A DNA stretch of 64,000 bases from Escherichia coli O157:H7 (GTDB lineage: Bacteria; Pseudomonadota; Gammaproteobacteria; Enterobacterales; Enterobacteriaceae). Made by a program: the position numbers. The stretch lies in the NCBI RefSeq assembly GCF_013167455.1, contig NZ_CP038328.1; one strand, written 5' to 3'. Positions 6,001-9,000 of this stretch are shown here, piece by piece; the stretch's first letter is position 1, and each line of letters starts with the position of its first letter.

Positions 6001-9000
6001 GACGTTCAGCTTCAAAAGCCGCAATTTTCGCATTCTGCTCAGCGGTACGGGTTTTAACCTGCTGCTCCTGCTCAAGCGTCATAAACGCTTCTTGTTGTTC
6101 AATCTCCAACTTGCGCGAAAGTGCATCACGGTTTTTCTCACGCACCGCAACTTCTACATCCTGTTCAACTTCGTTACGCTCGCGGCGACGGCGCTCCGTC
6201 TCCTGAGTCAGTTTGGTTAAACCTTCGGCGTCAAAGGCATTGTTAGGATTGAAATGTTCTTTCGAGGTCTGGTTAAAGTTGGTAAGTGAAACGCTTTCCA
6301 GTTCCAGGCCGTTTTTCGACAGATCTTCAGCTACGGTATTTTGTACTCCCTGCACGAAGTTCTCGCGGGTATCCTGTAACTCATGCATGGTCATTTGCGC
6401 AGCTGTTGCACGGAGGGCATCGACAAATTTATCTTCAACCAACATACGTAAGTCTTCAGGCGACAGGGTGCGTTGCCCCAGCGTCTGGGCAGCGGTGGCA
6501 ATCCCTTCTACTGAAGGTTTTACCCGCACAAAGAAAGCGACTACTACATCGACGCGCATACGATCTTTCGTAATCAGGCTATCAATGGTTGAGCGGCTGA
6601 CTTCCAGCTTCAGAGTATTCATATTGATGGGGATTATTTCATGAAAGATCGGCATCACGATTGCGCCACCGCTCATTACCACTTTTTGCCCCCCTAAGCC
6701 GGTACGGACAAATGCTTGCTCTGCCGAAGCGCGACGATAGAGCCTGGCGAAAATAATTCCAATAATAAACAGAATGCATACGGCAATAATCGCGGTAAAC
6801 ATCCAGGAGGGCACGGAATTAACAATATCATCCATTATTAAATTTCCTTTTGATTAATAAATTACAATATTTGGGGCTAGGGATTGTTTTCCGCCAAATA
6901 TCGCGTTGCAGAAAGTCGGCAAATAATTAACACTTTGTCTCCTTTAGTGAAAATTTTTCCTTCTTCAGGCTCCAGTAGTAAATAATGTATTTGGCCAAAA
7001 TGATCGGTGAGTTTTCCTTCGCAGGGATTACCTGAAGTGGCTTGATGACCGGTAATTAACGCCATGCTACCAATATATTCTTCTTCTGTAATAGCTGAGC
7101 TATGATCGCGTGGAATCCAGGGCGCAACTATTTTACCGGTATAATGCACCGCAATAATCGTAAATAGTAAACTGACAGGAACCACAAACAGGTTCGAGAG
7201 TGGTGATTGCCAGACCATGATGCAGGTATGCTGCAACAGGATGCCAATAAGACCAAAAAAACCAGCCAGTAAGCAAAGAACGACGAGAGCTGGCAATCTT
7301 CCGATATTGAGATAATGAAGTGCCTGGCTAATATGACCTGTGGTTATGGAATCATAATGGTCAAGATGTGCATCAAGAGCACCGGAGAGCATGTGACCGC
7401 AGATAAGCGCAAAAATTTCTAAAAGGCCGATCAACAGTACAAAGGAAATAGCGAAAAGATAAGGGGTGTTATAGTCGGCGAATAAAATCATATGTCACTC
7501 CAATGTCCATTTAGTGACGCAATATTTACTTTGTGATAGTTTCCTTGCTTACATTTGTCTTTGTTAATAATAACATATGTTAGAGAGGTTCTGGAAGAGA
7601 AAGTCTTTTAATATGGTTTTTTATTTTTCACTAAAAAGTGTGATCGGGGACAATATATTTACGCACGTTATGTTTAAAGGCACTACACTGATTGGGGAAT
7701 ACTGAAATCAGAAAAAGCATATGGCCTTAAAAGGTATGCGATAACCGGAGGATGTGCTTATGGATCATAGTCTTAATTCTTTAAATAATTTCGATTTCCT
7801 AGCGCGTAGTTTTGCCAGAATGCACGCAGAAGGTCGCCCGGTCGATATTCTGGCCGTTACTGGTAACATGGATGAAGAACATAGAACCTGGTTTTGCGCA
7901 CGTTATGCCTGGTATTGCCAACAGATGATGCAAACCAGAGAACTTGAATTAGAACACTGATATTACGGGCCGTCTGGCCCGTTTTTGTGTTGCTTTATTC
8001 TGCTTTATCAATAGGCGGGATAGCCGGAGGAGATTGAAGATCTGCTACCGAATTATTGCGCGCTTCCAGTTCACTGCTGCGCTGCTCCAGTAACGCCAGT
8101 TTTTCACGAGTCCGCAACAGGACTTGCGTCTGAACGTCGAATTCTTCGCGGCTTACCAGATCGAGACGCGTCAGCTGCGCTTGTAGGGTTTGGCGGATTT
8201 TTTTCTCCACATCTTCCCCGAACTCCCTGATTCCTTTAGGCATTGATTCGTGAACCTGGCGAGCGATTTGCTCAATTTTTTTCGGGTCAATCATTGTAGT
8301 TTCCCTGTACTGATAGGTGTTGAGTGCCATTGTAGTGCGATAAGGGTAAGTCATAAACCAGAATTATGTGAAGCTATGCGTTGCTGCCGCTAATCATTAG
8401 CGTTATAGTGAATCCGCTTATTCTCAGGGCGGGGCGAAATTCCCCACCGGCGGTAAATCAACTCAGTTGAAAGCCCGCGAGCGCTTTGGGTGCGAACTCA
8501 AAGGACAGCAGATCCGGTGTAATTCCGGGGCCGACGGTTAGAGTCCGGATGGGAGAGAGTAACGATTCTGTCGGGCATGGACCCGCTCACGTTATTTTGG
8601 CTATATGCCGCCACTCCTAAGACTGCCCTGATTCTGGTAACCATAATTTTAGTGAGGTTTTTTTACCATGAATCAGACGCTACTTTCCTCTTTTGGTACG
8701 CCTTTCGAACGTGTTGAAAATGCACTGGCTGCGCTGCGTGAAGGACGCGGTGTAATGGTGCTTGATGATGAAGACCGTGAAAACGAAGGTGATATGATCT
8801 TCCCGGCAGAAACCATGACTGTTGAGCAGATGGCGCTGACCATTCGCCACGGTAGTGGTATTGTTTGCCTGTGCATTACTGAAGATCGCCGTAAACAACT
8901 CGATCTGCCAATGATGGTAGAAAATAACACCAGCGCCTATGGCACCGGTTTTACCGTGACCATTGAAGCGGCTGAAGGTGTGACTACCGGTGTTTCTGCC

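Follow-up and report, generated by a model that had tools for sequence, protein, structure and literature searches.

The window analyzed here, 64,000 nucleotides of the Escherichia coli O157:H7 contig NZ_CP038328.1, contains glgS and ubiK (yqiC) in convergent orientation. The glgS coding sequence, which encodes 66 amino acids, lies at 7760 to 7960 on the plus strand and ends in a TGA stop codon at 7958 to 7960; it was assigned from the ORF list, a full-length Pfam match (GlgS, PF08971; E value, 1e-45), and the RefSeq annotation of an O157 strain with identical sequence. The ubiK coding sequence (7995 to 8294, minus strand; 99 amino acids) was assigned from its ORF, the annotation, and a match to Pfam BMFP (PF04380; E value, 6e-26), and its TAA stop codon is read from 7997 to 7995. 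The annotation was taken from O157 strain FDAARGOS_293, to which the window is 100% identical from 7400 to 8600. On the far side of ubiK lies the divergent gene ribB (8668 to 9321, plus strand; ORF and annotation), with an FMN riboswitch upstream of it at 8416 to 8564 on the plus strand (Rfam RF00050, 120.9 bits).

Direct reading of the sequence placed the gap between the two convergent genes at exactly 7961 to 7994, which bears out the orientation and the ~34-bp spacing proposed in an earlier interpretation of this DNA (the sequence-only reading). That interpretation had also seen neither a fimbrial cluster nor IS2 at the junction, and indeed we found no homologs of fimbrial genes and no IS2 within the gap, which is merely 34 bp long. 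When K-12 and B2 proteins were used as tblastn queries, 0 homologs of Yqi or Yqi-like proteins were detected across the whole 64-kb window, and no chaperone-usher operon (subunit, usher, chaperone, and adhesin genes) was found there by the same method.

Some further observations concern the surrounding region. On the glgS side, yqiJ (6877 to 7491) is annotated as encoding 204 amino acids in O157 versus 209 amino acids in K-12 and ATCC 25922, and YqiJ is unusually divergent among Escherichia lineages, with 88 to 89% protein identity to its counterparts in E. albertii and in a divergent Escherichia genome labeled E. coli (L003), versus 97 to 98% for the neighboring YqiK. A tandem pair of ~357-bp repeats lies at 4425 to 4781 and 4801 to 5157; each shares 91 to 92% identity with the K-12 counterpart of the other, and the pair represents the type I toxin-antitoxin loci sibD/ibsD and sibE/ibsE. 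In ATCC 25922, only one ibs gene is annotated. Between ygiD and ygiC, ATCC 25922 carries dsbI, a dsbA/dsbL-type gene, and an aryl-sulfate sulfotransferase gene (L083, 21504 to 24672), all of which are missing from the corresponding position in K-12 and in the O157 window (~11515 to 11552).

The gap itself contains a GC-rich hairpin (ACGGGCC-GTCT-GGCCCGT; 7965 to 7982, plus strand), identified by terminator scan and by folding, that has a 7-bp stem with 6 GC pairs and a 4-nucleotide loop. Its folding energy is -19.2 kcal/mol on the plus strand (z score, -3.7 versus shuffled sequences) and -17.3 kcal/mol on the minus strand (z score, -4.1). In the glgS (plus) direction, the terminator scan found the T-run TTTTTGTGTT trailing the hairpin at 7982 to 7991, and the hairpin together with this T-run most likely constitutes the intrinsic terminator of glgS. 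Read toward ubiK (minus strand), the stem runs into UAAUAUCAGUGUU, where the scan made no terminator call; with so weak a U-tract, the hairpin would act on ubiK transcription as a weak barrier at best. The proposal that the two genes share one terminator hairpin thus held in that there is a single hairpin, canonical for glgS, but it failed on the ubiK side, which lacks a proper U-tract and received no call. The stem, AACGGGCC-nnnn-GGCCCGTT, is invariant in Escherichia (including E. albertii and L003), Citrobacter, Salmonella, and Trabulsiella, and the loop varies. The element resembles other intrinsic terminators between convergent genes in having a GC-rich stem-loop and U-tract directly after the stop codon. 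Whereas the U-tract is found only on the glgS side in Escherichia, in Citrobacter youngae, C. portucalensis, and C. werkmanii the stem leads into the T-run when read toward ubiK. Since K-12 retains the hairpin next to glgS, it lies outside the segment that varies between the two strains.

The organization of the locus in K-12 is very different. In MG1655 (NC_000913.3), the annotated order is ubiK (3184840 to 3185130), ygiL (b3043), yqiG (b3046), yqiH, yqiI, and glgS (3191739 to 3191939), with 6,608 bp separating the ubiK and glgS stop codons and with yqiG annotated as a pseudogene split by IS2I, which carries insC5/insD5. The sequence-only reading had given this order, including the yqiG pseudogene and the IS2 copy, and the annotation agrees with it on every gene. 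The window was also aligned to MG1655 by BLAST.

In this alignment, homology between the window and K-12 ends at 7991, just past the T-run, and resumes at 8064. The intervening 72 bp without a K-12 match (7992 to 8063, minus strand) take in the 3 bp of spacer nearest ubiK along with the stop codon of that gene and its final 22 codons. K-12 has 6,637 bp in place of these 72 bp, or 5,301 bp when IS2 and its 5-bp duplication are subtracted, and the K-12-specific segment has a GC content of 40.2%, versus ~49% in the flanks. Nucleotide alignment of K-12 ubiK revealed extra synonymous differences from approximately codon 66 and a loss of alignment after codon 77; on this side of the segment, O157 and K-12 share 93.2% identity in the first 250 bp and are fully identical (100%) in the 500 bp beyond. 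The K-12 difference is not a clean insertion between two genes, as the segment overwrites the 3' end of ubiK. We also considered a clean site-specific insertion in K-12 and rejected it because the boundaries are homology breakpoints, one of which falls inside ubiK. No direct repeats, target-site duplications, or mobile-element ends were evident in the K-12 junction sequences. The yqiG::IS2 junction of K-12 is present in just 357 of 5,426 complete E. coli genomes.

The effect of this replacement is visible in the UbiK protein. O157 UbiK (99 amino acids) and K-12 UbiK (96 amino acids) are identical up to residue 72 and differ thereafter. Because the Pfam BMFP domain spans residues 1 to 78 in both variants, the swapped part is a tail that lies outside the domain. 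The O157 tail carries the motif PAIPP(V/I)D, which is shared with Salmonella, Citrobacter, Enterobacter, Kosakonia, Leclercia, and E. fergusonii and is absent from the K-12 tail, although the latter is still UbiK-like (ENRST...ETLPPTL). A donor of the K-12-type tail was not found among the best 120 homologs, in which this tail was confined, with one exception, to proteins labeled E. coli or Shigella or carrying no species label. The exception is a related tail, ENRSTVTVVKDDQETLPPTL (…ETLPPTL), encoded on two short Logan contigs (L084 and L085; SRR33454298 and ERR3179213) from one enterobacterium with ~78 to 83% nucleotide identity to E. coli, in which ubiK is the direct neighbor of glgS, with a gap of 191 bp and no fimbrial genes. 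The ENRSTVTVVKDDQETLPPTL tail shows that the K-12 tail type exists natively outside E. coli, although it does not thereby identify the donor; the enterobacterium that carries it may be related to the lineage from which the 3' end of K-12 ubiK was derived.

To determine the polarity of the difference, we compared the locus across outgroups. A scan for UbiK that used one genome per bacterial species returned at least 80 loci, in which Escherichia was represented by E. albertii and L003, and among the loci listed, ubiK and glgS were adjacent and convergent at every one that also had glgS. The adjacent order was observed in 10 Citrobacter genomes, with a gap of 32 to 33 bp in the six that were measured, and in Trabulsiella (32 bp), Salmonella diarizonae and arizonae (73 bp), Superficieibacter, and Pseudocitrobacter. 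Closer to E. coli, the gap is 28 bp in E. albertii and ~169 bp in E. fergusonii (by protein look-up), and the divergent Escherichia genome L003, which is 90 to 94% identical to the window, has a 34-bp spacer that differs from that of O157 at 2 positions. Both flanks of the O157 junction resemble the outgroups, as judged by the UbiK tail motif on one side and the hairpin on the other. Given that the O157 allele matches the outgroups in gene order and in flanking sequence, the K-12 form appears to be the derived one. We consider it highly probable (roughly 0.9) that the 34-bp O157 junction is the ancestral form of the site and was never occupied. Counting against it is the uneven gap length among the outgroups, which ranges from 28 to ~241 bp. 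The sequence-only reading had left the choice between an ancestral empty site and a deletion; the adjacency in outgroups, the ancestral UbiK tail, and the lack of any cluster remnant all favor the former.

We next examined how the alternative forms are distributed among 5,426 complete E. coli genomes. An unbroken ubiK|glgS junction was found in 2,066 of them, at 97.9 to 100% identity to the window, and the Yqi-like cluster was matched in 3,364. A second empty site is located 1.3 kb away, where the 145 bp between ribB and yqiD in the window (9320 to 9464), delimited by BLAST against ATCC 25922 and the annotation of that strain, give way in phylogroup B2 strains, including ATCC 25922 (L083, 13922 to 19402) and Nissle, to the Yqi (ExPEC adhesin I) cluster of 5,481 bp. 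E. fergusonii also carries a Yqi cluster, of ~5.5 kb, between ribB and yqiD. Proteins of the Yqi cluster are 37 to 59% identical to the Yqi-like proteins of K-12. The Yqi cluster was present at ribB|yqiD in 994 of the 5,426 genomes, and the region was uninterrupted in 4,431, which together make up the 5,425 genomes with any match; the differences 2,066 - 994 and 4,431 - 3,364 both come to ~1,070. Based on these summed counts rather than on a per-genome intersection, the three states appear to be mutually exclusive, with ~62% of genomes carrying Yqi-like, ~18% carrying Yqi, and ~20% carrying neither. The window allele belongs to the last class. The region can thus be described as a small fimbrial hot spot, in which two alternative sites accommodate related and apparently mutually exclusive operons.

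The ribB|yqiD gap is also variable in other genera, ranging from ~0.3 to 7.3 kb in Citrobacter, Salmonella, and Enterobacter, many of which have distant yqi-family clusters there, and the conserved block beyond the gap always restarts at window position 9465. We rejected these distant clusters as orthologs of either E. coli cluster because their proteins share 32 to 68% identity with them, which makes them family members only. Separately, ~30 matches to the region fell on plasmid-labeled records of ~32 kb (e.g., NZ_CP154598.1 and NZ_CP074029.1), which are probably unplaced chromosomal contigs in assemblies designated complete.

This distribution is in keeping with published surveys. Yqi and Yqi-like have been described as closely related, mutually exclusive fimbrial types located at different positions (Wurpel 2013, PMC3559732). 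Table S2 of that study, which provides phylogroup assignments for 35 published strains, assigns Yqi-like (b3046 in MG1655) to every strain of phylogroups A and B1 as well as to IAI39, and to none of the O157:H7 or O55:H7 strains. Yqi is recorded there for the majority of B2 strains, for strain 042, and for E. fergusonii, whereas the five phylogroup E strains, four of them O157:H7, have neither type. The yqi adhesin cluster was likewise reported to be absent from O157:H7 strains EDL933 and Sakai (Antao 2009, PMC2771359).

The phylogroup pattern bears on how the O157 lineage came by its empty site. One possibility, which we regard as improbable, is that Yqi-like, or else the B2-type Yqi, was present in an ancestor of phylogroup E, which later imported an empty ribB-ubiK-glgS haplotype by homologous recombination. 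Such an allelic replacement would be consistent with the patchy flanks of the locus, where identity to K-12 and B2, computed per 250 bp, varies between 90% and 100%, as is typical of recombination. It would also fit the seemingly exclusive distribution of the three states at sites 1.3 kb apart, which is expected if whole haplotypes are replaced, and the presence of Yqi-like in IAI39, outside phylogroups A and B1, implies that the cluster can move between lineages. Nothing requires a replacement, however. On the 35-strain table and the population counts, the simplest mapping, with the cluster present in A and B1 but absent from B2, E, and the outgroups, would involve only one gain. Even if phylogroup E did undergo a replacement, the window would still contain the empty site in its ancestral form, and the description of its sequence would be unchanged.

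A still less probable alternative is that the O157 lineage once had the ygiL-yqiGHI cluster and then deleted it. Loss of fimbrial clusters is common in E. coli (Wurpel 2013, PMC3559732), and we observed partial or IS-disrupted Yqi-like copies in 95 genomes that cover <80% of the cluster. Moreover, strain HH97, the one genome whose match to the K-12 cluster query was confined to its final 39 bp, provides a genuine deletion allele (L089, NZ_CP116409.1, 4714 to 5040): the cluster has been lost, the flanks are 100% identical to K-12, 46 bp of unrelated filler occupies the junction, and UbiK is truncated to 82 amino acids, ending in ELENRSNR*. The HH97 allele nevertheless looks quite unlike that of O157, in which neither a cluster remnant nor a K-12-type tail is present, and the absence of all the marks seen in HH97 argues against a deletion in O157. 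In addition, a deletion could not have rebuilt the ancestral UbiK tail or a spacer of 34 bp identical to that of L003 at all but 2 positions. Least credible of all is that the adjacency reflects an assembly artifact or a collapsed region, since the same or nearly the same contiguous arrangement recurs in 2,066 independently finished genomes and in other species.

If the O157 junction is ancestral, the K-12 form would have arisen when a low-GC, horizontally acquired chaperone-usher operon, ygiL-yqiG-yqiH-yqiI (Yqi-like), was inserted between the hairpin and ubiK. Entry was most likely by homologous recombination, with the mechanism and the direction of the event both being inferred; transposition or site-specific insertion seems a less likely route. 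One breakpoint would fall immediately beyond the glgS terminator and the second within ubiK, at approximately codons 66 to 77. In the most economical reading, the foreign DNA brought in the fimbrial operon flanked by a ubiK 3' end of its own and by a glgS-proximal end, such that the last 22 codons of ubiK would have been exchanged for a foreign tail, and IS2 would have entered yqiG later in K-12.

The diversity of the cluster itself offers some insight into the number of such events. Strain KW21 (L092), whose divergent Yqi-like allele is ~94.6% identical to that of K-12 and encodes an intact 834-amino-acid usher, has the same glgS-side junction (window position 7991) and the same UbiK tail as K-12. 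Divergence between KW21 and K-12 (L001, 6433 to 10739) peaks in the adhesin gene yqiI, at 82 to 90% identity. Across records, identity of the cluster to K-12 falls into two main classes, ≥99% (1,579 records) and 90 to 95% (about 94.5%; 1,685 records). A single insertion event followed by divergence would fit the junction and tail that KW21 and K-12 share.

A consequence of the K-12 form being derived is that the UbiK variant of K-12, which is the one studied experimentally and is carried by ~62% of E. coli, has a tail that is atypical of its family, with the Pfam domain (residues 1 to 78) untouched. One could speculate that the acquisition of Yqi-like, by rewriting the C terminus of UbiK, altered UbiK function (ubiquinone biosynthesis or the interaction with UbiJ) or the formation of the ubiK 3' end, and that the exclusivity of Yqi and Yqi-like reflects functional incompatibility rather than linkage and clonal descent, but we consider this unlikely. 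That the O157 backbone is ancestral and K-12 derived at this locus is useful to know when K-12 coordinates or K-12 UbiK serve as the reference; beyond such bookkeeping, the significance of the difference is slight.

The arrangement in the window, with K-12 as the interrupted form, can be related to several known systems. Genome comparisons of O157:H7 with K-12, reportedly those of Perna in 2001 and Hayashi in 2001, are said to have defined K-12-specific "K-islands," which the present case resembles in that a segment of K-12 is absent from O157 at a collinear position in the backbone. The lack of Yqi and Yqi-like fimbriae in O157 is already known and is an ordinary presence/absence polymorphism, and the exchange of the UbiK tail together with the insertion is possibly the sole new detail. 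A literature search on ygiL, glgS, and yqiC together returned no paper that addresses the junction or the tail replacement; the text and Table S2 of Wurpel 2013 (PMC3559732) make no mention of glgS, the breakpoints, or an effect on ubiK, and neither glgS, the anatomy of the junction, nor the replacement of the UbiK tail was found in the portion of Antao 2009 (PMC2771359) that was examined.

In Salmonella, the same arrangement has been described: in S. Typhimurium, yqiC points away from ribB and toward glgS, and its product has 99 residues (Carrica 2011, PMC3107778). The locus matches the window in organization and differs from it in the length of the gap, which is 73 bp in the Salmonella subspecies that we compared versus 34 bp in the window. 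The Yqi, or ExPEC adhesin I, cluster (Antao 2009) is a related four-gene cluster in the same neighborhood, but it is a different operon and is located at ribB|yqiD rather than at ubiK|glgS. The closest parallel is the polymorphism of Yqi-like, a pi-class chaperone-usher type, in the survey of Wurpel 2013, which concerns the same locus and reaches the same conclusion as to content. Relative to that survey, the present analysis uses outgroups to polarize the empty allele and shows that the insertion overwrites the 3' end of ubiK.
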